Below, in pieces: positions 2,837-14,019 of a stretch of DNA of 64,000 nucleotides. The translations under genes were made by a program, and so were the position numbers. A model generated the notes under the pieces. That model was not told the origin of the DNA. It made no database searches and saw only the letters and a program-made list of their open reading frames with translations. The stretch is taken from assembly GCA_022340545.1 (NCBI GenBank), contig JAJDNV010000090.1:801-64800 (forward strand), given 5' to 3'. The stretch is from Acidobacteriota bacterium. GTDB taxonomy: Bacteria > Acidobacteriota > Vicinamibacteria > Fen-336. Within the stretch, counting starts at the first letter, position 1, and each line of letters opens with the position of its first letter.

Positions 2837-5254
2837 CTACGCCAGGGAAGGCTTTGCCGCGACGACGGGCGCGGCGAGGGGGGTTGAGCCCGAGAGCCCG
2901 TCGTGCTCGGTGCGGGCGATGATCTCATCCTGGAGGGCCACTGAGAGGTCGCAGAAGTAGTCGCTGTAGCCGGCCACACGCACGATCAGGTCGCGGTGCT
3001 CCTCGGGCCGCGCCTGCGCCTCGCGCAGCGTCTCTGCCCGCACCACGTTGAACTGCACGTGATGCCCGTCCATCTTGAAGTACCCCCGCACGAGGTGGGC
3101 CAGGGCGTCGATGCCGGCATCGCCGTCGAGGAGAGAGGGGGCGAACTTCATGTTCAGCAGGGTGCCGCCCGTGCGGAGGTGGTCCATCTTCGCCGCCGAT
3201 CGGAGGACAGCGGTCGGTCCGCGACGGTCGGCCCCCTGCACCGGTGAGATGCCCTCGGACACTGGCCGCGTCGCTCGACGTCCGTCCGGCGTCGCCCCGG
3301 TCACCGAGCCGAAGTAGACGTGACAGGTCGTGGGCAGCATCTGGATGCGGTACCGTCCCCCGCGGGCGCTCGGGCGGCCGTCCACCGAGGAGAAGAAAGC
3401 CTCGAAGGCGCGCTGCATCAGGGCGTCGGCGCGGTCGTCATCGTTGCCGTACTTCGGCATGCGGTTGACGAGCCGCAGGCGCAGGGGCTCGTGTCCGTCG
3501 AAATCGCCGTCCAGCGCCGACACGAGCTCCTCGAGAGACACGCGCCCCTCCTCGAACACCGCGCCACGGATGGCGGCGAAGCTGTCGGTCAGCGTCCCGA
3601 TACCCACCCCCTGGATGTAGGTATTGTTGTACCGGGCGCCGCCGGCGTTGTAGTCACGGCCGCTGCGGATGCAGTCGTCGATCAGGACCGAGAGGAATGG
3701 CGCGGGCATGAGCCGCGCGTACATCCTCTGGATCACCTGGTTGCCGGCGATCTTGACGTCGAGAACGTGCCTCATCTGTGTCTCGAAGGCGCCGAAGACG
3801 GCATCGAAGTTCTTGAGGGTCCCCGGCTCGCCGGTGGCCGGGCCGAGCCGACGCCCCGAGCGCGGATCGAGTCCGTTGTGCAGGGCCAGCTCCAGCACCT
3901 TCGGCAGGTTGAAGTAGCCGGTGAGGATGTAGGCCTCCTTGCCGAAGGCCCCGACCTCCACGCAGCCCGAGCAACCGCCGGCCCGGGCGTCCTCGAGCGT
4001 CTTGCCCTGGCGTAGCTGTTCCGCGACGACGGCATCGGCGTTGAACAGCGACGGGAATCCGTAGCCCTTCCGGACGACCCTCAGGGCGTGCTTCAGGAGC
4101 GCGTCCGGCGTCTTGCCCGAGACCTGGACGTTCGAGGATGGCTGGAGGAGGTGCATCTCGTCGATGATCTCGAGGAGGAGATGCGAGACCTCGTTCGAGC
4201 CGTCGGTGCCGTCCGTCCGGAGCCCGCCGAGGTTGATGTTGGCGAAGTCGGTGTAGGTGCCGCTCTCGGCGGCGGTGACCCCCACCTTCGGCGGCGCCGG
4301 GTGGTTGTTGAACTTGATGAAGAAGCACTCGAGGATCTCCTTCGCCCGCTCCCGCGTGAGCGTCCCTTCCATCAGGCCACGCTCGTAGAACGGGAGCAGG
4401 TGCTGGTCGAGGCGTCCCGGGTTGAAGGCGTCCCAGCCGTTGAGCTCGGTGATGACGGCGAGGTGGCAGAACCAGTACGACTGGAGCGCCTCCTGGAGAT
4501 CGCGGGGGGCCTGAGCGGGCACCCGGCGGCACACGGAGGCGATCGTCTTGAGCTCGGAGCGTCGAGCGGGCTCGGGCTCGGCTTCGGCCAGGGCCTCGGC
4601 CCGCTCGGCGTGGCGCGCCGCGAAGAGCAGAACCGCGTCGCACGCGATGTCCATGGCCCGGAGCTGTTCACGTCTGTCCCAGGCCTCCCCATCGTGGAGA
4701 GGGTCCAGCGCCTCGACGGCGGCGGCGATGTCGGCCTTGAAGTCCAGTAGCCCCCGCCGGTAGATCTTGTCGTCGAGGACGGTGTGGCCCGGGGCCCGCT
4801 GCTCCATGAACTCGGTGAAGAGCCCGGCCTCGTAGCACGTGTGCCATTCCGGTGGCAGGGCCTCGAAGATCCGGTCGCGCAGCGACCGGCCTCGCCAGTA
4901 GGGGATGACGTCCCGCTCGTAGGCCAGGATCACATCGGGGTCGACCCGGTAGCTCGTCTTCTCGCGGGAGTTCAGGATGCGAAGGTCCTCGACGCTGTGG
5001 CAGGTGAGCTCCGGGAAGGTGGGGACGGCCTTGGGCGCCGGCCCCCGCTCGCCGACGATCAGCTCGCCCTCGCCCACGTGGATTCGCCTGTTCTCGCAGA
5101 GGTGCAGAAACGCGCGGGCCCGCATGACGGGCACAGAGAGGCGCCCGTCGTGGTCGCGGTAGAAGCGCGTCAACAGGAGCGCGCGCTCGGCGGAGATCGA
5201 TGGCGGGGTGTCGAGGCTCAGCCGGCGCAGGGCTTCGGTTCGGGGGGTCATCAT
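2837..5254 (-). CDS. Glycyl radical enzyme, PFL2 / glycerol-dehydratase-like (eliminase) family; substrate unknown
   Basis: 805 aa from ATG at 5254-5252 (MMTPRTEALRRL...). The C-terminal glycyl radical motif is RVAGYSDYFCDL. Active-site loop GGCSGCVEVG has the Cys-x-Glu arrangement of PFL2-type eliminases. The track's 1065-aa ORF has a low-complexity N-terminal 260 aa that overlaps the activase gene and is rejected. Confidence 0.9.
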   Translation of the reverse strand: MMTPRTEALRRLSLDTPPSISAERALLLTRFYRDHDGRLSVPVMRARAFLHLCENRRIHVGEGELIVGERGPAPKAVPTFPELTCHSVEDLRILNSREKTSYRVDPDVILAYERDVIPYWRGRSLRDRIFEALPPEWHTCYEAGLFTEFMEQRAPGHTVLDDKIYRRGLLDFKADIAAAVEALDPLHDGEAWDRREQLRAMDIACDAVLLFAARHAERAEALAEAEPEPARRSELKTIASVCRRVPAQAPRDLQEALQSYWFCHLAVITELNGWDAFNPGRLDQHLLPFYERGLMEGTLTRERAKEILECFFIKFNNHPAPPKVGVTAAESGTYTDFANINLGGLRTDGTDGSNEVSHLLLEIIDEMHLLQPSSNVQVSGKTPDALLKHALRVVRKGYGFPSLFNADAVVAEQLRQGKTLEDARAGGCSGCVEVGAFGKEAYILTGYFNLPKVLELALHNGLDPRSGRRLGPATGEPGTLKNFDAVFGAFETQMRHVLDVKIAGNQVIQRMYARLMPAPFLSVLIDDCIRSGRDYNAGGARYNNTYIQGVGIGTLTDSFAAIRGAVFEEGRVSLEELVSALDGDFDGHEPLRLRLVNRMPKYGNDDDRADALMQRAFEAFFSSVDGRPSARGGRYRIQMLPTTCHVYFGSVTGATPDGRRATRPVSEGISPVQGADRRGPTAVLRSAAKMDHLRTGGTLLNMKFAPSLLDGDAGIDALAHLVRGYFKMDGHHVQFNVVRAETLREAQARPEEHRDLIVRVAGYSDYFCDLSVALQDEIIARTEHDGLSGSTPLAAPVVAAKPSLA

Positions 5255-6147
5255 CAGGCTCCAAGCGAGACCTGGAGGCCCCGCTCGCGAAACACGACCG
5301 CGAGGGCCTCCATCCGTTCGGGGGAGGGCGGGGCGAGGGACTGGAGCGAAGACGGCCGGCCGAGTCGGCGGGCCTTGTCCACGCCGGTCCGGTGGTACGG
5401 CAGCAGGCTCACCCGGCGCACGCCGCTCAGCCCGGCAACGATCTCCGCCAGCGCGGCGAGGTCGGCTTCGCCGTCGGTGTGGCCGGGGATGATCGGGACG
5501 CGGATCCAGAGCGAGCGGTGGGCACGGCTGAGCGCCTGCAGGTTTTCGAGGATTGGCTCCGTGGGGAGGCCGGTGAACTCGCGGTGTCGGGCGTCGTCGG
5601 CGAGCTTCAGGTCGAAGAGGAAGAGGTCCACGAGCGGGACGAGGCCGAGAATCTCCTCGCGCGGTCCGAAGCCGCACGTGTCCACCGCGGTGTGGAGGTC
5701 GTGGCCCCGCGCGGCCTCGAGGAGGGCCCGGAGGAACCGAAGCTGGGCCAGAGGCTCGCCGCCGGAGAAGGTGACGCCGCCCCCCGATTCCTGGAAGAAG
5801 ACGCGGTCGCGCAGGACCTCGGCCATCACCTCGTCCACGGTCGTCTCGCGGCCGACCATCTCCCGGGCCCCGGCCGGGCACGCCTCGATGCAGGCGCCGC
5901 AGGCCGTGCACACGCCGGAGCCGGGGTCGGGGGCCCCGTGCGGGCACACCTCCTGGCACGTGCCGCACTCGATGCAGCGGCTGTCCACCCTCACGACCTC
6001 GGGCCCGAACGACTGGCTCTCCGGGTTGTGGCACCAGAGACAGCGGGCCGGGCAGCCCTTGAGGAAGACGGTGGTGCGGATGCCGGGGCCGTCATGCAAC
6101 GAGTAGCGCTGCACGTTGAAGACGCGCCCGCTCGTCAGCCCGCTCAT
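5254..6147 (-). CDS. Glycyl radical enzyme activating enzyme (radical SAM, PflA/CutD-like)
   Basis: 297 aa with a CPARCLWCHNP radical-SAM CX3CX2C cluster near the N-terminus, plus ferredoxin-like CIECGTCQEVCP and CTACGACIEACP inserts typical of GRE activases. Its stop TGA (5256-5254) overlaps the GRE ATG (TGATGATGA). Confidence 0.9.
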   Translation of the reverse strand: MSGLTSGRVFNVQRYSLHDGPGIRTTVFLKGCPARCLWCHNPESQSFGPEVVRVDSRCIECGTCQEVCPHGAPDPGSGVCTACGACIEACPAGAREMVGRETTVDEVMAEVLRDRVFFQESGGGVTFSGGEPLAQLRFLRALLEAARGHDLHTAVDTCGFGPREEILGLVPLVDLFLFDLKLADDARHREFTGLPTEPILENLQALSRAHRSLWIRVPIIPGHTDGEADLAALAEIVAGLSGVRRVSLLPYHRTGVDKARRLGRPSSLQSLAPPSPERMEALAVVFRERGLQVSLGA

Positions 6148-6833
6148 GGCGAGGCCTCGACCGCCTCTCCGAAGTAGTAGCGGTGGATGAAGGGCTCCTG
6201 GACGCCGAAGGACCAGTGCACGTCGCGAAGGTGATCGGCAGCGGCCCGCGCGTCGCCCCTCGCCACGAGCCGTACCAGAGCGGCGTGCTCCTCCAGAGAG
6301 GCAAGCTCCCAGTCCTTCACGAGCCCCTGGCGCCGGGGCCAGTCGTAGAGTCTTTGCTTCTGGATGCGCACGATCCGCACGAGGAGCTCGTTCTCGCAGC
6401 GGTCGAGGAACACGTCGTGGAAGGCGAGGTTCCGGTCGTAGTACAGGTCGAAGTCGTCGGCGAGCACGGCGCTCTTCATCTCCGCGTTCAGGCCGTTGAG
6501 GGTTCGTATCTCCGCCTCGCCAAGCTTCGGGAAGGCGGCGAGGACGGCCGTCCCCTCGAGGGCCCCGATCAGCTCGTAGAGATGGCGGATGTCCTCGAGG
6601 GTCAGTGGCCGCACCCGGACTCCCCGCCGGGGAAGGATCGCGACGAAGCCCTCCGCCTCGAGCTGGAGGAGGGCGTCCCGGAGCGGGGTGCGGCTCACGC
6701 CGAGTCGAGAGGCCAGCTCGTCCTGGTTGATGAACGACCCGGGTTGGATCTCACCGTGGGTCATGAGCAGGCGCAGGTGGTCGTAAACCTGCTCCCGGAG
6801 TGACTTGAGGACGAGCGGACCCGACGTGCCCAC
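6144..6833 (-). CDS. GntR family transcriptional regulator, FadR/FCD subfamily
   Basis: 229 aa with an N-terminal winged HTH (QDELASRLGVSRTPLRDALLQLEAEGFV) and a C-terminal FCD-like helical domain. GTG start at 6833. Its 3' end overlaps the activase start by 4 nt. Confidence 0.85.
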   Translation of the reverse strand: MGTSGPLVLKSLREQVYDHLRLLMTHGEIQPGSFINQDELASRLGVSRTPLRDALLQLEAEGFVAILPRRGVRVRPLTLEDIRHLYELIGALEGTAVLAAFPKLGEAEIRTLNGLNAEMKSAVLADDFDLYYDRNLAFHDVFLDRCENELLVRIVRIQKQRLYDWPRRQGLVKDWELASLEEHAALVRLVARGDARAAADHLRDVHWSFGVQEPFIHRYYFGEAVEASP

Positions 6834-6937: not shown

Positions 6938-7675
6938 CTAGCTGAGCCAGTCGATCAGACCCCGGACCGCGGAGAGGATCTCGACGTCGTGGCTCGCCGG
7001 CCGGGTGCCGGGCGCGGCGGAGAGCCTCCCCGTCATCAATCGGGCGTCAAGCTCGGCCTGGCGCAGCCGTTCCCGCTCATCCTGGAGGTCCGCCTTCTCC
7101 CGGGCCCGCGCCCGGTCCATCCCGCCCGCCCGGATGAACTCGACGATCCGCCGCAGCTCGCCCTGGTTGAGCCAGACGCCGTGCCCCTTGCAGACGTCGA
7201 CGAGAACACCCGACACCCGGGCGAAGTTGTGCCGGTTCATCAGACGCCGGCACTCGGGGCAGGGCCAGTAGCGCTGGGGCCCGGCCGGCGCGGGCGGGGC
7301 CTGGGGCCGGGACAGCGTCGCCTCCAGGACGACGGTCTGCTGCTCGGTCTCCTCGCAGATGCGGTGAAATGAGGTTGTGTCCACCCAGAGGCCGCCGCAG
7401 CGCGTGCACTCGTCGAGGGTGACCGAGCCCACCTTCGCGGGCTCGAGAGGACGCTTGCACTCCGGACAGGGGCGGGACGGACGGGACTCGGCCTCCTCGC
7501 GCACCGCCTTCGCCCCGCAGTGGGCGCAAAAACGAGTGCCCCGGAACAGCTTGGCGAAGCATGACGGGCAGGCCACGAGGGCGAGCAGGGTGCCGCAGTA
7601 TGGGCAGGCCGTCGCATCTGGCGTGGCCGGAGCTCCGCACGAGGGGCAACGGACGGTCCCCGCAGTCTTCGGCAT
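6938..7675 (-). CDS. Zinc-ribbon protein with two zf-TFIIB-like CxxC...CxxC modules
   Basis: 245 aa containing CPSCGAP...CPYCG, CPSC...CAHCG, CPECKRP...CTRCGGLWVD and CPECRRL...CKGHGVWLNQGEL. A C-terminal charged, coiled-coil-like segment follows. Confidence 0.6.
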   Translation of the reverse strand: MPKTAGTVRCPSCGAPATPDATACPYCGTLLALVACPSCFAKLFRGTRFCAHCGAKAVREEAESRPSRPCPECKRPLEPAKVGSVTLDECTRCGGLWVDTTSFHRICEETEQQTVVLEATLSRPQAPPAPAGPQRYWPCPECRRLMNRHNFARVSGVLVDVCKGHGVWLNQGELRRIVEFIRAGGMDRARAREKADLQDERERLRQAELDARLMTGRLSAAPGTRPASHDVEILSAVRGLIDWLS

Positions 7676-7795
7676 CGCCTCGATTCTATGCCCAGGGACT
7701 TCTCGTGAACGAACTCATCGCGAATGTTGGCCTGGCGAAAGACGATGCGGCGGATGCTCGGTCGGGCCCCGCGGGCGACCGGTGCCGACGGGCCC

Positions 7796-9121
7796 CTATT
7801 TCGTGACCGTGAAGACGACGCGCTCGGAACGCGTGCCGACCCCATCCTCGAGGGCGATCGCGAACTCCCCGGTCTCCGCGTCTTCGGCGAGATCGACGAG
7901 GATGGTGATCAGCGTCGGGTTCACATACTTGTGACGGAGCACGGTCACGCCCCGGGGGGCCTTCTCCAGGGGGAGAATGCGGGCCTGGAGATCGGAGCGG
8001 AACCCGGTTCCCCGCAGATCGAGCAGGACCTTGCCCGGCCGCCGCACCTCGAGCGGCGACACCGTGGAAAGGACCACCGGCTCCGCCGGCGGGGCCGGCG
8101 GCGCAACCTGGGGCGCGGGGTTCGGCGGTGGCGCCTCGACCTGGGGCGCGGGGGCGGGCGGCGCGGCGGCCGGCTCCGGGCGCGTCACCGGCTCGGGGGG
8201 TGCTGGCACCGGCGTGGGTGTGGGTGTCGGCCTGGGCGTGGGTGTGGGCGCGGGCTCGACCGCAGTCGGCGGAGGGGACACCGCCCGAGGCGGCGTGGGT
8301 GTGGGCGTTGGTCGCACGCCGGGATCCGTCATCGCCGGCGTGGGCGTTGGGATGGCCGGGACGGGCGTGGGCGCGGCGGCCGCCGGTGTGGGCGTGGGCT
8401 GGGTGGCCGTTGGCTCCACCGCTGCCGGCGTGGTGGCCGGAACCGAGGCGACGGTCGTGGGTGGCGCCGGCGTTGTCGCCGCACCCGACGAGGATGTGAG
8501 CCCGGGCCCGAGGTACTGCCAGCCCGCGCCGGCGGCAAGGCCAATGACGACGACCAGGGCGGCGAGAAGCGGCCACGTGCGTCGGGAGGGCCGCTCGGCA
8601 CTCGCCCGCGCCGGCTTCGCCGATCGTGCCGAGCGTGTGATCCGGGGCGACGTCTTCGGTCCCGCCGAGCTCTTCTGCTGAGCCGCCGCCATCTGGGCGA
8701 GGTACGTCAGGTCCTTCGGCCGCCAGTCGGCCGAGCGCTCGAGGCAGGCCATGACCGCGTCCGCCAGCTCCCGGGGCAGATCGGAGCGCACCTTGAACAG
8801 GTGGGCGGGGGAGTCACCCGCGGGACGTCCGGCCAGGATCTCCCAGGCGATCGCCCCGGCCGAGTAGACGTCGGCCAGCGCCGGCGGCGCGTCGCCGCCG
8901 GCGTCGGGTGCGGCGTAGCCGGGCGCGGGAGCGCCCTGGCGCGCCGCTGAGAGGTCGCAATCCAAGTCGGAGCCCAGCTCGATGCGAGAGGGCTCGAGGG
9001 CGGCCAGAGCCCCGCCGCGGTCGTGGACTTCGTTGACGGCCTGGCAAAGAGAGTGAACGACGCGCAGCCTCTCGTCGAGCGATCGTTCCTGCCGGAGCCA
9101 GACATCGAGCTTCATGGTCAC
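7796..9121 (-). CDS. Membrane protein with a degenerate protein-kinase C-lobe-only domain, a TM helix, a long Pro/Thr/Ala-rich linker and a ~90 aa C-terminal domain
   Basis: The N-terminal ~160 aa resemble Ser/Thr kinase subdomains VIb-XI (VHDRGG in place of HRD; DVYSAGAIAWEILAG like subdomain IX; ACLERSADWRP like XI). There is no Gly-loop/VAIK N-lobe, and no room for one upstream. A TM segment WPLLAALVVVIGLAAGAGW follows, then a PTPTP-rich linker. Confidence 0.5.
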   Translation of the reverse strand: MTMKLDVWLRQERSLDERLRVVHSLCQAVNEVHDRGGALAALEPSRIELGSDLDCDLSAARQGAPAPGYAAPDAGGDAPPALADVYSAGAIAWEILAGRPAGDSPAHLFKVRSDLPRELADAVMACLERSADWRPKDLTYLAQMAAAQQKSSAGPKTSPRITRSARSAKPARASAERPSRRTWPLLAALVVVIGLAAGAGWQYLGPGLTSSSGAATTPAPPTTVASVPATTPAAVEPTATQPTPTPAAAAPTPVPAIPTPTPAMTDPGVRPTPTPTPPRAVSPPPTAVEPAPTPTPRPTPTPTPVPAPPEPVTRPEPAAAPPAPAPQVEAPPPNPAPQVAPPAPPAEPVVLSTVSPLEVRRPGKVLLDLRGTGFRSDLQARILPLEKAPRGVTVLRHKYVNPTLITILVDLAEDAETGEFAIALEDGVGTRSERVVFTVTK

Positions 9122-9254
9122 CCAGCCGGGAAAAGTCTACACCCTTAAAGGCTCACCGTGTGGCGGCAGGGCCGCCCCGGGTCCCTCGCAGGCACGGCCC
9201 AAGCCGCCTCGAGTGTCGGAGAGCCCGAGCCCGCCGCGAGGACGCCCCCGGGGG

Positions 9255-10682
9255 CTATTGACCCAGCGGCGGAAAGCCGGCCTTCTGGGCCAACTTGTCC
9301 ACCAACGGCACCAGGTCGTTGATGCGGGGGAGCTTCTTTCCGTTGACGTAGACGGTCGGCGTCGCGTTGACTCCCAGACGCCGGGCCTCGGCGATCTGCG
9401 CCGCGAGCGCCGCCTTCGCCTGCGGATCCTCCAGGCAGCCCCGCATCGCCGCGGGGTTGAGGCCGGCCTCGCCGGCGAGGCGGATGACGTCGGCGGCTCC
9501 GGGATTGCGGAGCCCCTCGGCTGAGAACACGCGGTCGTGGTAGGCGTCGAACTTGCCCTGGTACTCGGCACAGATCGCCCCGAGGGCCAGCTGGCAGGAG
9601 CCGGGGTGGGTCGAGCGCGGCAGGCTCTCGTTGCACTCCTTGTCGAGCGGGTAGTTCTTGAAGCGAACGGCCACCCGCCCGCCGGCCTGGGGCAGGAACT
9701 GCGAGAGCCCCAGCCCCAGATTGCGGCAGAACGGACAGAGGAAATCGGAGTACTCGACCACCGTCACCGGCGCGTCGGCGGGGCCCCTCAAGGGGACGTT
9801 CTCCAGGTCGATCGTCTCCACTGGCGCGCTCTCGAACTGGGCCTGGGCCTTCCTCGCGAAGTACTGCTCGAGCTTCCGGGGATCATCGAGCGTCTCCTGA
9901 AGCTCCTGGGCTCGCTCCTTCCAGTACGCCGCCTCCTTGGAACTCTGGGAGACCTCCTCCGCCGGCGGGGCCTCCGGGGTCGGATTCGTCCCGTCCGGGG
10001 TGGTGTCGGGCGATGCGTCGTGCGGCGCGTCGGCGGGCGGCGGGGGAATGGGGGCCGGTGCGCCGAGAAGCGCGACCTGTCGCCGCTGCTCACGATAGTC
10101 GAGCGTGGACTCCGCCCCCAACACGGCCGCGGCGAGCGCGAGAGAGCCGAGCGCCCAGCCCGCGACCGCCAGCCGGCCCTCGACCCGCCGGAGGGCCCCG
10201 CCCGGATCCAGGGCCCCGCGCCACGCCGGCAGGAGAGCGACCAGGGCCAGCGCGCCCAGGACATAGGTCAGGATGCACACCGAGCAGAAGGCCTGGACCG
10301 CAAGCGTCTGGACACCGAGGAGGAACATGTCGAACAGAAGACCCAGGGCAAGGCCCACGACGACCCATCCGGTCAGCGCCGGCCGCAGCTCGTCGGGAAC
10401 GAGGAGCGTGAGCAGCAAGAGAAGGCCCAGCGACGCGTAGAAGACGATCCCCAGGGCCGCCAGGGGAACTCCCCGGATCGACGACCAGGAGCTCCGGGCC
10501 ACTATCTCGCAATCGCTGCCCGTGCCGGCGTCGCCCTCGCTGCAGACCCGGTTGACGGCGGACACCGCGCGGCCCTCTCCGTGGTGTTGGAGGAGCAGCA
10601 GGCCGGAGACCATCGTCCCGGCCAGGCAGAGAACGAGCGCGATCACGAGTCGCTTCACACTAGTTGTTCCCAATGGAGCCAA
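9255..10682 (-). CDS. Vitamin K epoxide reductase (VKOR) domain fused to a DsbA-like thioredoxin domain
   Basis: The N-terminal polytopic domain has loop cysteines (CSEGDAGTGSDC) and the CSVC redox motif typical of bacterial VKOR. The C-terminal domain has a CPFC thioredoxin-fold active site and a DsbA-like sequence. Confidence 0.8.
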   Translation of the reverse strand: MAPLGTTSVKRLVIALVLCLAGTMVSGLLLLQHHGEGRAVSAVNRVCSEGDAGTGSDCEIVARSSWSSIRGVPLAALGIVFYASLGLLLLLTLLVPDELRPALTGWVVVGLALGLLFDMFLLGVQTLAVQAFCSVCILTYVLGALALVALLPAWRGALDPGGALRRVEGRLAVAGWALGSLALAAAVLGAESTLDYREQRRQVALLGAPAPIPPPPADAPHDASPDTTPDGTNPTPEAPPAEEVSQSSKEAAYWKERAQELQETLDDPRKLEQYFARKAQAQFESAPVETIDLENVPLRGPADAPVTVVEYSDFLCPFCRNLGLGLSQFLPQAGGRVAVRFKNYPLDKECNESLPRSTHPGSCQLALGAICAEYQGKFDAYHDRVFSAEGLRNPGAADVIRLAGEAGLNPAAMRGCLEDPQAKAALAAQIAEARRLGVNATPTVYVNGKKLPRINDLVPLVDKLAQKAGFPPLGQ

Positions 10683-10913: not shown

Positions 10914-13157
10914 GTGATCCTGCGCCTCGGCTCCGGTGATGCAGCCCAGAAGGGCTGCGGTTCGAAAGCGGCCCTGCTGGACCGCGCCGCGCGCGCCGGG
11001 CTCCCCGTGCCTCCGGGCGTCATCGTCCTCGACGAGGCGTGGCGCTCCGCGGTCGAGAGAGGTCTCGTCCGGGTGGAGCGGCTCACCGACCGCCGGCCCG
11101 TCTCCGTGCCGGACCCGTCGCTGTTGGTGCACCTCATCGGGCTGCCGCCCTTCAAGGGTCCCCTCGCCGTCCGCTCGGCCTTCTCGGCGGAAGACGGTGC
11201 GATCGACAGCCTGGCGGGAGTCTTCGTCTCGGGGTTGTTCGTCGACGGTCGGCGCCCGGCCGCCCTCGCCGCGGGGCTGGCCGGTGTCTGGGCCTCCGCT
11301 TTCCGGCGCCCCCGCGGCTTCCGTCGGGACCTGATTCTCCAGGAGATGGTTCACGCCCGCCGGGCTGGCGTCGCCTTCACCGAGCGGGAGTACGAGGACG
11401 ACCTCGTCAACATGGCCGACGGCACCGCCGAAGGCCTCGTCGGCGGCGAGCTTGCGGGCGAGCAGCTGCTCCTGCCCAAGCGTCGGGGGGCGGAGGGCCC
11501 CACCGTCGCCGACCCGATCGGGGCCCGGCTCCAGATCCTGCTACGCGACGTGCGGCGGGTATTCGACGAGGCCGACTGGGACGTGGAGTGGGCGGACGAT
11601 GGCGAGCGTGTCTGGCTCGTCCAGGTGCGGCCGGTGACCCGCCCCACCCTTCGCAACGAGCAGTTCACCTCCGCCGGGCACCGGGAGATGCTGCCCGATC
11701 CCCCCTCGCGCCTGATGACGAGCCTCATCGCCTCCTGTGCCCCCCGGTTGTTCGACGCCCTCCGCCGCTTCGACCGCGGGCTGCCCGCCGGCCGCCCCCT
11801 CGTCGAGGTCTTCCGTGGTCGGCCGTTTCTCAACCTGTCGCTCCTCACCGAGACGATGCGCCGGTGGGGCCTGCCTTCGAAGCTCGTGACCGACTCGATC
11901 GGCGGTGCCGCCGATCGAGATTTCGGTGCTCAGCCGTTGCGTTTGCTTCGCCAGGCACCTTTGTTGGCCCGCCTCGCCGCCGCCCAGCTGAGATCGGTGT
12001 CGTCGGCCGCCGCCGCCGAACGCCGGATCGAGGAGCACACCGCCTCGCCCCCGGCCGGCCTCGCGGACACGATCGAGGATCTGCGTTGGCTCTACTCCAC
12101 GCTCGTCGCCGAGATGCTCTCGTTGGCCGCGGCCATGAGCGGACCGCTCGCCCTCCTGCGCCGGGCGGGCGTTCTCGCGGGGCTGGCGTCGCGCTGGCGT
12201 TCCGCGGGAACGGAGTTTCGGGAGGACCTCGCCGCCCTGCGGGCCCTGGCGGCCGGCCAGCCGGCACTGCTCGAGTCGCTCCAGCGGGGAACCCTGCCCG
12301 ACGACGGGGTCTTCCGTGTCGAGTTCGAGGGATGGCTCGAACGCCACGGCCATCGCGGGCTGTACGAAGGCGACATCGCGTGCCCGCGGTACCGCGAGGA
12401 GCCGGAGTCGCTCCTGCGGGGCCTGGCCGCGCCGGCGGAGGAACCCCCGGCCCCGCCGCTCACGTCGCGCCGGGCGGGCCTCCTTCGACCCGTGGCCTGG
12501 CAGGCCGAGAGGACGCTTCTCGCCCGCGAGCGACTGCGCTCCGCCGCCCTGCGCGGCTTCGAGCGGCTCCGTGGGGCGCTCCTCGCCCGGGCGCGGACGC
12601 TCGCGGCCCGAGGCGTCCTGCCGTCGGTGGAAGCGTTGTTCCACCTCGACCTCGACGAGCTTCGCCGCCTGGACGAGGGGTTCCGCCCGGATGCGGCGTT
12701 TTGGAGAGCGCGAGCGGCAGAGAATGACTCCGCGCGGGCCTACGAGTTCCCGGACGTCTTCCACCGGCTGGACGACATCGAATCCTTCCGAGCCGGACCG
12801 CCCGGCGAGGCGGCCCCAGCCCGGCTGCGCGGCATCGGTCTCACGACGGGACAGGTGCGGGGCCGCGCCTGGGTGCTGACGGACCCGTCGGTCGAGCTGC
12901 CCCCGGGCCAGGTCGCCTCCGAGACCATCCTGGTCGCGCGCGCGGTGGACGCGGCCTGGGTGCCCACCTTCTCCCGGGTGGCCGGGGTAGCGGTCGAGGT
13001 CGGGGGCGACCTCTCGCACGGCTCGATCACCCTTCGAGAGATGGGCCTTCCCGCGGTCACGAACGTTCGTGGAGCGACGCGCGCCCTCCGCACCGGGGAT
13101 TCTCTGATCCTCCGCGCCGACGAGGGCACGGTCGAGCGGGTCGAGCCGGACTCCTGA
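10914..13157 (+). CDS. PEP-utilising enzyme family protein: PPDK_N ATP-grasp N-domain plus C-terminal mobile His domain (PEP synthase / rifampin-phosphotransferase-like architecture)
   Basis: N-terminus GSKAALLDRAARAGLPVPPGVIV resembles the PPDK/PEPS nucleotide-binding domain. C-terminus GIGLTTGQVRGRAWVL...VEVGGDLSHGSITLREMGLPAVTNV is the PEP-utilisers mobile domain with the catalytic His. The middle ~350 aa are of unknown function. Confidence 0.75.
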   Translation: MILRLGSGDAAQKGCGSKAALLDRAARAGLPVPPGVIVLDEAWRSAVERGLVRVERLTDRRPVSVPDPSLLVHLIGLPPFKGPLAVRSAFSAEDGAIDSLAGVFVSGLFVDGRRPAALAAGLAGVWASAFRRPRGFRRDLILQEMVHARRAGVAFTEREYEDDLVNMADGTAEGLVGGELAGEQLLLPKRRGAEGPTVADPIGARLQILLRDVRRVFDEADWDVEWADDGERVWLVQVRPVTRPTLRNEQFTSAGHREMLPDPPSRLMTSLIASCAPRLFDALRRFDRGLPAGRPLVEVFRGRPFLNLSLLTETMRRWGLPSKLVTDSIGGAADRDFGAQPLRLLRQAPLLARLAAAQLRSVSSAAAAERRIEEHTASPPAGLADTIEDLRWLYSTLVAEMLSLAAAMSGPLALLRRAGVLAGLASRWRSAGTEFREDLAALRALAAGQPALLESLQRGTLPDDGVFRVEFEGWLERHGHRGLYEGDIACPRYREEPESLLRGLAAPAEEPPAPPLTSRRAGLLRPVAWQAERTLLARERLRSAALRGFERLRGALLARARTLAARGVLPSVEALFHLDLDELRRLDEGFRPDAAFWRARAAENDSARAYEFPDVFHRLDDIESFRAGPPGEAAPARLRGIGLTTGQVRGRAWVLTDPSVELPPGQVASETILVARAVDAAWVPTFSRVAGVAVEVGGDLSHGSITLREMGLPAVTNVRGATRALRTGDSLILRADEGTVERVEPDS

Positions 13158-13172: not shown

Positions 13173-13919
13173 TCAGAAGCCGACCAGCAGCCCCGCCGTC
13201 ACGTGGATGTCGTGCTCGGATCTTCCGGACACGAAGTGGTCGAGCACGAGGTGGTCGATCACATCGATGCGCGCCCCGACCCTGCCGAAGAGGATCTTGA
13301 GCCCGGCGCCGAACCGGAGCTCGAAGTCCGTCTCCGTGCCGCCCGAGCCGCTCCAGGACACTCCCCCCGCGCCGAACACGAGCACCGGCCGGACATCGCC
13401 GCCCGTCATGTCGTAGGCCAGCCCCCCGCCGTAGTGCCAGGCCGTGACTCGGCGGCCCGCCTGGCGCCGGAAGTCGCGCTCAGGCTGGCCCAGCCCCGGG
13501 ATCTCGGGCCAGCTGTCCCCGCCGAAGCAGCGGTCGGAGACGCAGAGATCGCCGCCCGCGTCGAGGTCGTGGGTCGGCGCGACCTCGAAGTCCGCCTCCA
13601 CCGCCAGGCGGCCCTTGATGAAGCGGGAGTAGCGGAACCCCAAGAGCGCGCTCTGACCCAGGGAGGTACGCGTTTGCAGGTCCACTCGGGGGTCGTCCTC
13701 GAGGCCCGGCCAGCCCGGCCCGCGGGGGAATCCCCGGGCGGCGGGCAGGGGAAGGACCCAGCTGCGGGTCTCGTCCCGCGAGGCGTCGAGGATCGAGATC
13801 CCGCCGAAGACGACGATCTGGTTCCCGGGGTCACGATCATCCTCGGCAGCCAGGGGCGTCGCTGCCAGCAGAAGCAGAGGGATGAACAATTGCAGGGCAC
13901 GAGGTGAGGTCATGAGCAT
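13173..13919 (-). CDS. Outer-membrane beta-barrel protein (OmpW/OmpA-like porin family)
   Basis: Signal peptide MTSPRALQLFIPLLLLAATPLAAE, alternating beta-strand pattern and C-terminal ...HVTAGLLVGF ending in Phe. Start chosen at ATG 13919 after GAGGAGAAG; GTG at 13931 is also possible. Confidence 0.6.
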   Translation of the reverse strand: MLMTSPRALQLFIPLLLLAATPLAAEDDRDPGNQIVVFGGISILDASRDETRSWVLPLPAARGFPRGPGWPGLEDDPRVDLQTRTSLGQSALLGFRYSRFIKGRLAVEADFEVAPTHDLDAGGDLCVSDRCFGGDSWPEIPGLGQPERDFRRQAGRRVTAWHYGGGLAYDMTGGDVRPVLVFGAGGVSWSGSGGTETDFELRFGAGLKILFGRVGARIDVIDHLVLDHFVSGRSEHDIHVTAGLLVGF

Positions 13920-14019
13920 TCTTCTCCTCACCCGATCATGCCACGCGGTCGGCGGGACTGATGTGAGGGCAACGTAAGACAGCTGAAAGAAGGGGATGCA
14001 GCGAGTGCGGCCGTGTGCG

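Follow-up and report, generated by a model that had tools for sequence, protein, structure and literature searches.

Why should a protein that retains only half of a kinase domain be encoded next to an enzyme of disulfide-bond formation, and what could such a remnant still do? This question is raised by two genes in a 64,000-nucleotide stretch of DNA (the window) from an Acidobacteriota bacterium (Vicinamibacteria, Fen-336; assembly GCA_022340545.1, contig JAJDNV010000090.1, positions 801 to 64,800). The window has a G+C content of about 70%, and its closest relatives are Acidobacteriota/Vicinamibacteria metagenome-assembled genomes (MAGs); all data used here come from MAGs and metagenomes of this one class. 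On the minus strand, two open reading frames (ORFs) are arranged head-to-tail. The upstream ORF, 9255-10682 (475 residues), encodes a fusion of a VKOR and a DsbA-like domain (VKOR-DsbA), and is followed by 7796-9121 (441 residues from its first GTG), which encodes the membrane protein that we refer to as the half-kinase. The ORF list and the sequence agree on this arrangement with an initial annotation of the locus, which had put both ORFs on one strand, the second lying 133 bp behind the first. We are highly confident that the half-kinase is a non-catalytic kinase descendant reduced to the C-lobe and conserved beside VKOR-DsbA. To the statement as a whole, comprising this descent, a C-lobe that serves as a binding module and a role as adaptor of VKOR-DsbA, we assign a probability of roughly 50%.

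The half-kinase most likely starts at ATG 9115 and has 439 residues; this start is preferred over GTG 9121 because the aligned homologs all begin with MKLD or MRLD, and residue numbers are counted from it. The gap between the two genes is 139 nt when measured to ATG 9115 and 133 bp when measured to GTG 9121. The pair and the parts of the half-kinase are laid out as follows.

9255-10682, minus strand: VKOR-DsbA fusion gene, upstream member of the pair (ORF, Pfam, Protein Data Bank (PDB) sequence matches)
9116-9254, minus strand: intergenic gap of 139 nt, from the VKOR-DsbA stop to the half-kinase ATG (sequence)
7796-9115, minus strand: half-kinase gene, 439 residues from ATG 9115 (GTG 9121 being the start in the mechanical ORF list)
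8666-9115, minus strand: kinase C-lobe-only domain, residues 1-150, helices αD-αI (profile alignment, predicted structure)
8579-8665, minus strand: basic juxtamembrane segment, residues 151-179, Arg/Lys-rich (composition)
8522-8578, minus strand: single transmembrane (TM) helix, residues 180-198, TWPLLAALVVVIGLAAGAG (top 19-residue Kyte-Doolittle window 1.94; conserved in the alignment)
8081-8500, minus strand: Pro/Ala/Thr-rich periplasmic stalk, residues 206-345, about 140 residues (composition, alignment)
7799-8080, minus strand: C-terminal IPT/TIG-like Ig-fold domain, residues 346-439, cysteine-free (predicted structure)

Profile comparison and structure prediction identify the cytoplasmic domain as the C-lobe of a kinase, running from αD to αI. 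Residues 1-151 of 23 homologs were combined into a profile, which matched residues 116-228 of Mycobacterium tuberculosis PknB with an E-value of 1.2e-8 and, more weakly, several hundred other kinase chains, the closest sequence and structure matches being PknB and Xanthomonas PknS. The AlphaFold2 model of the domain has a predicted local distance difference test score (pLDDT) of 93.5 and a predicted template modelling score (pTM) of 0.91. Direct family searches returned little: no Pfam-A family matched the half-kinase at E <= 1, the protein stays below the gathering threshold of Pfam Pkinase (PF00069), and NCBIfam yielded weak matches of 14-26 bits (cut-offs 450-990), all of them to the C-lobe part of kinase families. 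The resemblance to a C-lobe alone, suggested by the initial annotation, is therefore borne out by the predicted fold and by the PknB profile, with Pfam itself giving no match.

The hidden Markov model (HMM) alignment with PknB sets the register of the catalytic motifs. An HDR in place of HRD had been reported earlier; this was a mis-registration, as VHDRG pairs with SHQNG of PknB at the end of αE, and the true catalytic loop is L37-A-A-L-E-P-S-R44, which pairs with HRDVKPAN. In this loop, the catalytic Asp is replaced by Ala (A39), the Lys by Glu (E41) and the metal-binding Asn by Arg (R44). A missing DFG motif had also been reported, which is correct for the Phe and the Gly, but the Asp is kept in D54-L-S and is invariant. 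The motifs of subdomains IX (D82/G87) and XI (R132, within WRPKDLTY) are retained, as the initial annotation had stated, and so is an APE-like Y67AAPD. Furthermore, the activation segment is about 13 residues shorter, αG is cut to a single turn by a deletion of about 14 residues in the clade of the window (alignment and model), and the alignment of 23 sequences contains 28 invariant columns. Set against the hallmarks of Hanks-type kinases, the half-kinase possesses the C-lobe core (αE-αI, APE, subdomain IX Asp, subdomain XI Arg) and lacks the N-lobe with its Gly-rich loop, VAIK Lys and αC Glu, as well as HRDxKxxN, DFG and a Pfam match above threshold. Lacking the N-lobe and with substitutions at the catalytic Asp, Lys and Asn, the protein is predicted from its sequence to be unable either to bind ATP or to transfer phosphate. 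On these grounds we exclude catalysis, in line with the earlier description of a non-catalytic remnant unable to phosphorylate.

A half-domain may simply reflect a hidden N-lobe, obscured because of a frameshift, an incorrectly called start or the splitting of the gene, or supplied in trans to form a split active kinase. Frame breaks do occur in the GC-rich linker of some orthologs from long-read MAGs (L003, L014/L075, L108). However, the upstream gap of just 139 nt is too short for an N-lobe of about 85-95 residues. Using tblastn, the N-lobes of full-length relatives had no match anywhere in the window, and the complete kinase domains of these relatives matched it from the C-lobe onward only. 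The start is also shared across the family: 31 of 31 aligned homologs, 400-460 residues in length, begin with MKLD or MRLD, and 157 of the 174 proteins that combine a C-lobe with an IPT-like domain are C-lobe-only with this common start, in independent assemblies. The truncated proteins begin two residues ahead of the conserved αD motif L-x-x-W, just past the hinge, and none of the 157 retains HRD, N and DFG. Below 1e-30, a search of 1.8 billion representative proteins yielded 41 relatives, and in most of these the match began at residue 1. A split active kinase is ruled out, given that an N-lobe in trans could not restore catalysis in a protein in which A39, E41 and R44 replace the catalytic residues. 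The upstream frameshift that the initial annotation had named among the findings that would refute its reading was thus not found, its statement that no N-lobe is present stands, and a concealed N-lobe is refuted for practical purposes; we regard an artefact of any of these kinds as exceedingly improbable.

The loss of half of the ancestral domain and of every catalytic motif could also be taken as a sign that the gene is a decaying remnant without function. The ratio of nonsynonymous to synonymous substitution rates (dN/dS) speaks directly against this. Compared with two orthologs, it was 0.13-0.21 in the C-lobe, the lowest values along the gene, and 0.23-0.39 elsewhere, the comparison with L075 having been left out owing to a frame break in its assembly. 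The gene is under purifying selection, with the C-lobe as its most constrained part, and is not a decaying remnant. The invariant columns and the confident fold predictions for both domains likewise refute a pseudogene, and hundreds of intact orthologs exist; we give this explanation next to no weight. As a side observation, the frame shifts within the GC-rich Pro/Thr linker of the long-read MAGs, and the many database 'proteins' of 57-170 residues that represent the IPT domain alone (P0121-P0233; split gene calls and contig ends), will distort counts of half-kinase family members that are based on gene calls.

The route by which the half-kinase arose can be read from its relatives. Some relatives are full-length and arrange a kinase domain, a TM helix, a Pro-rich stalk and the same IPT domain in this order. 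Five of them look active, carrying GxGxxG, VAIK, HRDLKPxN, DFG and APE (P0298, P0316, P0341, P0358, P0363). The other six are degenerate: their catalytic loop reads HRALKPGN, HGRLTPER or HGGLEPSA, and SFG, GFG or DLG stands in place of DFG. In a neighbour-joining tree without support values, the non-catalytic members form one clade that is sister to the active kinases, and the clade of the window is derived. Loss of catalysis was accompanied by a shortening of the activation segment by about 13 residues, by the αG deletion in the window clade and by the motif DWRPKDL(T/S)Y at the αH-αI junction, which the non-catalytic members carry and the active relatives lack. The ancestor would have been a receptor-type Hanks Ser/Thr kinase with an extracytoplasmic IPT/TIG domain, in a lineage that would have lost its catalytic residues first and the entire N-lobe afterwards. 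Judged by their motifs, the intermediate stages of this decay survive as active, degenerate full-length and truncated forms. With all three sharing one architecture, the path from enzyme to pseudoenzyme to half-domain is directly traceable.

The partner gene encodes an enzyme with the following parts.

10239-10643, minus strand: VKOR domain, residues 14-148, with four TM segments, loop Cys47/Cys58 and active-site C133-S-V-C136 (Pfam, hydropathy)
10116-10172, minus strand: fifth hydrophobic segment, residues ~171-189 (hydropathy)
9327-9794, minus strand: DsbA-like thioredoxin-fold domain, residues 297-452, with C316-P-F-C319 (Pfam, PDB sequence matches)

Pfam assigns VKOR to residues 14-148 (E 9.8e-17) and Thioredoxin_4/DSBA to residues 297-452 (E 3e-20 / 4e-15), and the motifs CSVC and CPFC, by which the initial annotation had recognized a VKOR-DsbA fusion, lie at residues 133-136 and 316-319. 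Among the PDB sequences matched are the VKOR/thioredoxin protein of Synechococcus, 4nv2, and the DsbA-like 3gyk, BdbD and 4pwp. Hydropathy reveals five hydrophobic segments in total, and the Synechococcus VKOR-thioredoxin (Trx) protein is a 5-TM protein; by analogy, the fifth segment would put the DsbA domain in the periplasm. With its loop Cys pair, a CXXC at TM4, an extra TM segment and a Trx-fold domain containing CXXC, the protein is, by its sequence features, a VKOR plus DsbA-like fusion, a known kind of enzyme for which quinone-dependent oxidase activity is predicted. JGI lists the VKOR-DsbA orthologs P0433 and P0455 as 'serine/threonine-protein kinase', a name that may have been carried over from kinases whose ectodomain is Dsb-like, for example PknE, and the half-kinase homologs P0060 and P0100 bear the same name though they contain nothing catalytic.

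The association of the two genes is strongly conserved. In 17 of 17 genome loci, the half-kinase is preceded on its own strand by a VKOR-DsbA ortholog; these loci stem from species-representative genomes that are all Acidobacteriota/Vicinamibacteria MAGs, none of them cultured, and half-kinase identity among them falls to about 43%. The gap between VKOR-DsbA and the half-kinase is 41-326 bp in orthologous loci. A metagenome scan revealed the same arrangement in 65 of 73 informative loci, 48 with gaps of 41-326 bp and 17 with gaps of 774-1021 bp. Among the eight negatives, five have less than 920 bp of upstream sequence and may be of a type with a gene inserted between the pair (see below); VKOR-DsbA is clearly missing beside two degenerate members that are full-length and beside one C-lobe-only member that is basal. 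Tested in reverse, three of three VKOR-DsbA orthologs, picked for long contigs only from among the matches listed (identity >= 58%, i.e. close orthologs), were followed by a half-kinase. The outer flanks of the cassette vary between loci. Outside the truncated group, a VKOR-DsbA homolog also precedes the full-length degenerate relative L021, a DUF1684 gene lying between the two, and the one active full-length relative examined has no VKOR-DsbA neighbour. Because L021 is paired and both this active relative and a distant C-lobe-only member are unpaired, sequence comparison places the origin of the linkage within the non-catalytic clade, with near fixation in the clade of the window. Since the pairing is strong and reciprocal while other neighbours change, it is reasonable to infer a functional unit.

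Beyond the C-lobe, the half-kinase has the layout of a receptor-type Hanks kinase. A single TM segment follows the kinase-like part and is preceded by a run of Arg and Lys, such that the positive-inside rule would place the N-terminus with the C-lobe in the cytoplasm and the IPT domain outside. The very long Pro-rich linker described earlier corresponds to the stalk, which consists of 36% Pro, 20% Ala and 18% Thr and differs in length and sequence among homologs. Its DNA had been called tandem and low in complexity; Tandem Repeats Finder (TRF) detected two short arrays (8144-8182 and 8210-8255) and no long tandem repeat. The C-terminal domain, estimated before at about 90 residues, comprises the final 94 and is confidently predicted as an eight-strand sandwich (pLDDT 93.4) of the E-set Ig-like fold. 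Two of 23 members match Pfam TIG (PF01833; best E 0.0075), and nine of 23 weakly match Qn_am_d_aIII. A search restricted to this domain retrieved short fragments of the same family (split gene calls, short contigs) and no new architectures.

The initial annotation had proposed a pseudokinase scaffold or sensor within an envelope redox or signalling unit. The non-catalytic remnant fits the former idea and the conserved, reciprocal pairing fits the latter, but redox sensing by the half-kinase itself does not hold up: the window protein has no periplasmic cysteine, and 141 of the 157 C-lobe-only family members have none beyond the TM helix. Because periplasmic cysteines are missing, the sequence argues against the half-kinase as a substrate of DsbA or as a thiol sensor, and a redox-sensing ectodomain is ruled out.

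As the half-kinase and the VKOR-DsbA disulfide oxidase are encoded together in a conserved two-gene cassette, we instead propose an adaptor role. The half-kinase would be a bitopic inner-membrane, non-catalytic adaptor of the oxidative-folding module, which would organise VKOR-DsbA or couple it to a cytoplasmic partner. Its C-lobe remnant would act as a protein-binding module, like the metazoan KIND domain; its candidate docking sites are the reduced αG region and the surface with DWRPKDL(T/S)Y, a motif specific to the family. The stalk of about 140 residues would keep the IPT/TIG domain at a distance from the membrane, and the probable ligand of this domain is a protein or polymer of the envelope. 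Taken by itself, this mechanism, with its presumed physical or regulatory link to VKOR-DsbA, is a tentative proposal that we hold at clearly less than even odds. Its most specific form, an independent bacterial counterpart of KIND that sits in a TM complex with VKOR-DsbA and thereby serves as a kinase-derived organiser or regulator of periplasmic disulfide formation, appears unlikely. If true, it would constitute an undescribed link between signalling architecture of the Hanks-kinase type and oxidative protein folding.

Several observations weigh against an adaptor of VKOR-DsbA. The enzyme exposes short cytoplasmic loops only, offering little contact surface to the C-lobe, and the cysteine-free ectodomain speaks against a connection as substrate or thiol sensor. 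Co-transcription is presumed from the gene arrangement; simple scans of the 139-nt gap detected no promoter-like or terminator-like site, and its RNA fold is no better than that of shuffled sequences (z -0.19). Some relatives are unpaired, namely the distant C-lobe-only P0254 and L104 and the full-length degenerate L019, L103 and L105. A gene is probably inserted between the pair in 17 of the 65 metagenome loci and in four of the 17 genome loci (L004, L006, L016, L017). Moreover, all loci derive from Vicinamibacteria, so the synteny partly reflects shared ancestry. In L004, the inserted gene (7118-7906, plus strand) encodes a His-box membrane protein of about 260 residues that matches Pfam FA_hydroxylase (sterol-desaturase family; E 1.9e-12), and gap size suggests the same insertion in the remaining long-gap loci (L006, L016, L017 and the 17 metagenome loci, among L026-L105). 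VKOR has been reported to adjoin sterol-desaturase genes in giant viruses, for which a vitamin-K redox module in lipid modification was proposed in 2026 (PMC13486548); the VKOR/sterol-desaturase adjacency in Acidobacteriota may deserve attention in its own right.

These same features, i.e. paired loci confined to one bacterial class, unpaired family members, an unrelated gene that can sit between the two and the absence of periplasmic Cys, would be expected if the genes were merely co-inherited in Vicinamibacteria and acted independently, the half-kinase being an envelope anchor or structural protein. However, the pair persists down to about 43% half-kinase identity despite repeated change of both outer flanks, most gaps between the two same-strand genes measure 41-120 bp, the linkage is seen in both directions, and even the full-length degenerate L021 is accompanied by a VKOR-DsbA homolog upstream. 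We therefore judge a purely historical adjacency to be improbable. Should it nevertheless apply, the evolutionary case stands and the physiological interest drops.

The relatives raise a further possibility, namely that the half-kinase is a decoy or co-receptor that modulates an active, IPT-bearing Hanks paralog via its IPT domain, TM helix or C-lobe, in which case the adjacency to VKOR-DsbA would say little about mechanism. The active full-length relatives do share the ectodomain, both ectodomain and TM helix are kept under purifying selection, allosteric non-catalytic roles are the norm for pseudokinases according to reviews, and truncated or pseudokinase receptors in eukaryotes are alike. 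On the other hand, active relatives are rare (5 of 174 sampled) and none was found within the 64-kb window, the αG region used for front-to-front contacts between kinases is deleted, and the near-universal reciprocal linkage with VKOR-DsbA would be left unexplained. We thus see little likelihood in such a role. The adaptor proposal turns the pairing with VKOR-DsbA into a testable hypothesis, that of an accessory or regulatory factor of disulfide formation in an abundant, poorly studied soil phylum.

The remaining neighbours of the cassette differ between loci. Directly downstream of the half-kinase, 6938-7675 (minus strand) encodes a 245-residue multi-zinc-ribbon protein (DZR, Zn_ribbon_3, two Zn_ribbon_TFIIB) that is conserved in the three closest genomes only (L001, L002, L005) and lies outside the conserved pair. 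It is followed by a cluster at 2837-6833 (minus strand) that comprises a GntR/FCD regulator (6144-6833), a glycyl-radical-enzyme activase (5254-6147; radical SAM and Fer4) and a PFL-like glycyl radical enzyme within ORF 2837-6034 (Pfam PFL-like, E 7e-218, with residues translated from 2837-5200); in the mechanical list, this ORF merges the enzyme with an upstream out-of-gene extension. As the zinc-ribbon, GntR and glycyl-radical genes are shared only by the three closest genomes, they are ruled out as members of the unit. On the other side, 10914-13157 (plus strand) encodes a PEP-utilising/PPDK-like protein of 747 residues, divergent from VKOR-DsbA and found at the same position in L001, L002, L014, L016 and L108. 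Beyond it, 13173-13931 (minus strand) encodes a 252-residue protein that has no Pfam match, a hydrophobic N-terminus that could be a signal peptide and a C-terminal Phe; homologs are located upstream of the cassette in L001, L007, L008, L011 and L015. At L106 (1-3916, minus strand), two Pkinase plus PD40/Tricorn-type proteins (854 and 863 residues) are encoded divergently upstream of the pair and a hybrid histidine kinase after it, which may be a coincidence or a local signalling neighbourhood. The distant C-lobe-only protein P0271 (L024, L025) has no VKOR-DsbA neighbour and is followed by a same-strand Sod_Cu gene (2083-2673 and 1876-2466, respectively), of the Cu/Zn superoxide dismutase family.

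How do the two proteins compare with known systems? Bacterial fusions of VKOR with Trx or DsbA domains are already established (PMC13486548). VKOR-DsbA resembles the Synechococcus VKOR (PDB 4nv2/3kp9) and the mycobacterial VKOR plus DsbA: it combines the VKOR core, the loop Cys pair and the CXXC with a fifth TM segment and with a CPFC-bearing Trx-fold domain that is predicted to lie in the periplasm. Relative to these fusions, the enzyme itself is ordinary and the novelty lies in its conserved, kinase-derived neighbour. That neighbour has the layout of PknB (PASTA ectodomain), PknE (DsbG-like) and Xanthomonas PknS, with a kinase-derived domain, one TM helix and an extracytoplasmic sensor domain; those proteins are active and two-lobed, whereas the half-kinase is devoid of the N-lobe and the catalytic residues and carries an IPT/TIG ectodomain. 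PknE is a precedent for a Hanks kinase joined to a thiol-oxidoreductase fold (PMC1847690), the difference being that the Dsb-type protein is encoded here by a separate neighbouring gene and is not a fused sensor domain.

The cataloguing of bacterial pseudokinases is recent, and the catalogues so far contain two-lobed families only. A 2025 atlas of bacterial Ser/Thr kinases and an accompanying review list seven pseudokinase families (ActPs1-3, GLW, DLHK, CP1 and DYD), all two-lobed and none from Acidobacteriota, and neither mentions VKOR; ActPs1 often lacks the G-helix (bioRxiv 10.1101/2025.01.12.632604). The atlas set was defined by homology to Pfam Pkinase (PF00069) in RefSeq and UniProt (bioRxiv 10.1101/2025.01.12.632604), and may have missed the half-kinase family, which is below the Pkinase threshold. 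We found no description of this family in the literature, including the 2025 atlas and the pseudokinase review. Like these families, the pseudokinase domain of MviN/MurJ and EssB/YukC, the half-kinase is a non-catalytic descendant of bacterial Ser/Thr kinases, and several of these pseudokinases are membrane-associated; judged by their descriptions, the known bacterial families keep both lobes, and the missing N-lobe sets the half-kinase apart. The closest functional parallel is the metazoan KIND domain, likewise an isolated C-lobe that has no N-lobe or catalytic residues and functions as an interaction module. In Spir, the stand-alone KIND C-lobe has no G-helix and a formin peptide binds at that site (PMC3415841), which may be compared with the reduced αG of the window clade. 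In contrast to KIND, the half-kinase is bacterial and membrane-anchored, has its C-lobe at the N-terminus and derives from bacterial Hanks kinases, PknB and PknS being closest. There was no KIND sequence match, the Pfam-A scan of the half-kinase having returned no family (the presence of a KIND model in that set was not checked). Because such a match is missing and the closest sequences are bacterial PknB-type kinases, sequence comparison supports an independent, convergent origin of the two C-lobes. A reduction to the C-lobe, previously a metazoan feature, would imply that this lobe is a viable interaction module in bacteria too. We regard the half-kinase as a bacterial pseudokinase of Hanks descent of which the C-lobe alone is left, and whose conserved genomic partner is hitherto undescribed.

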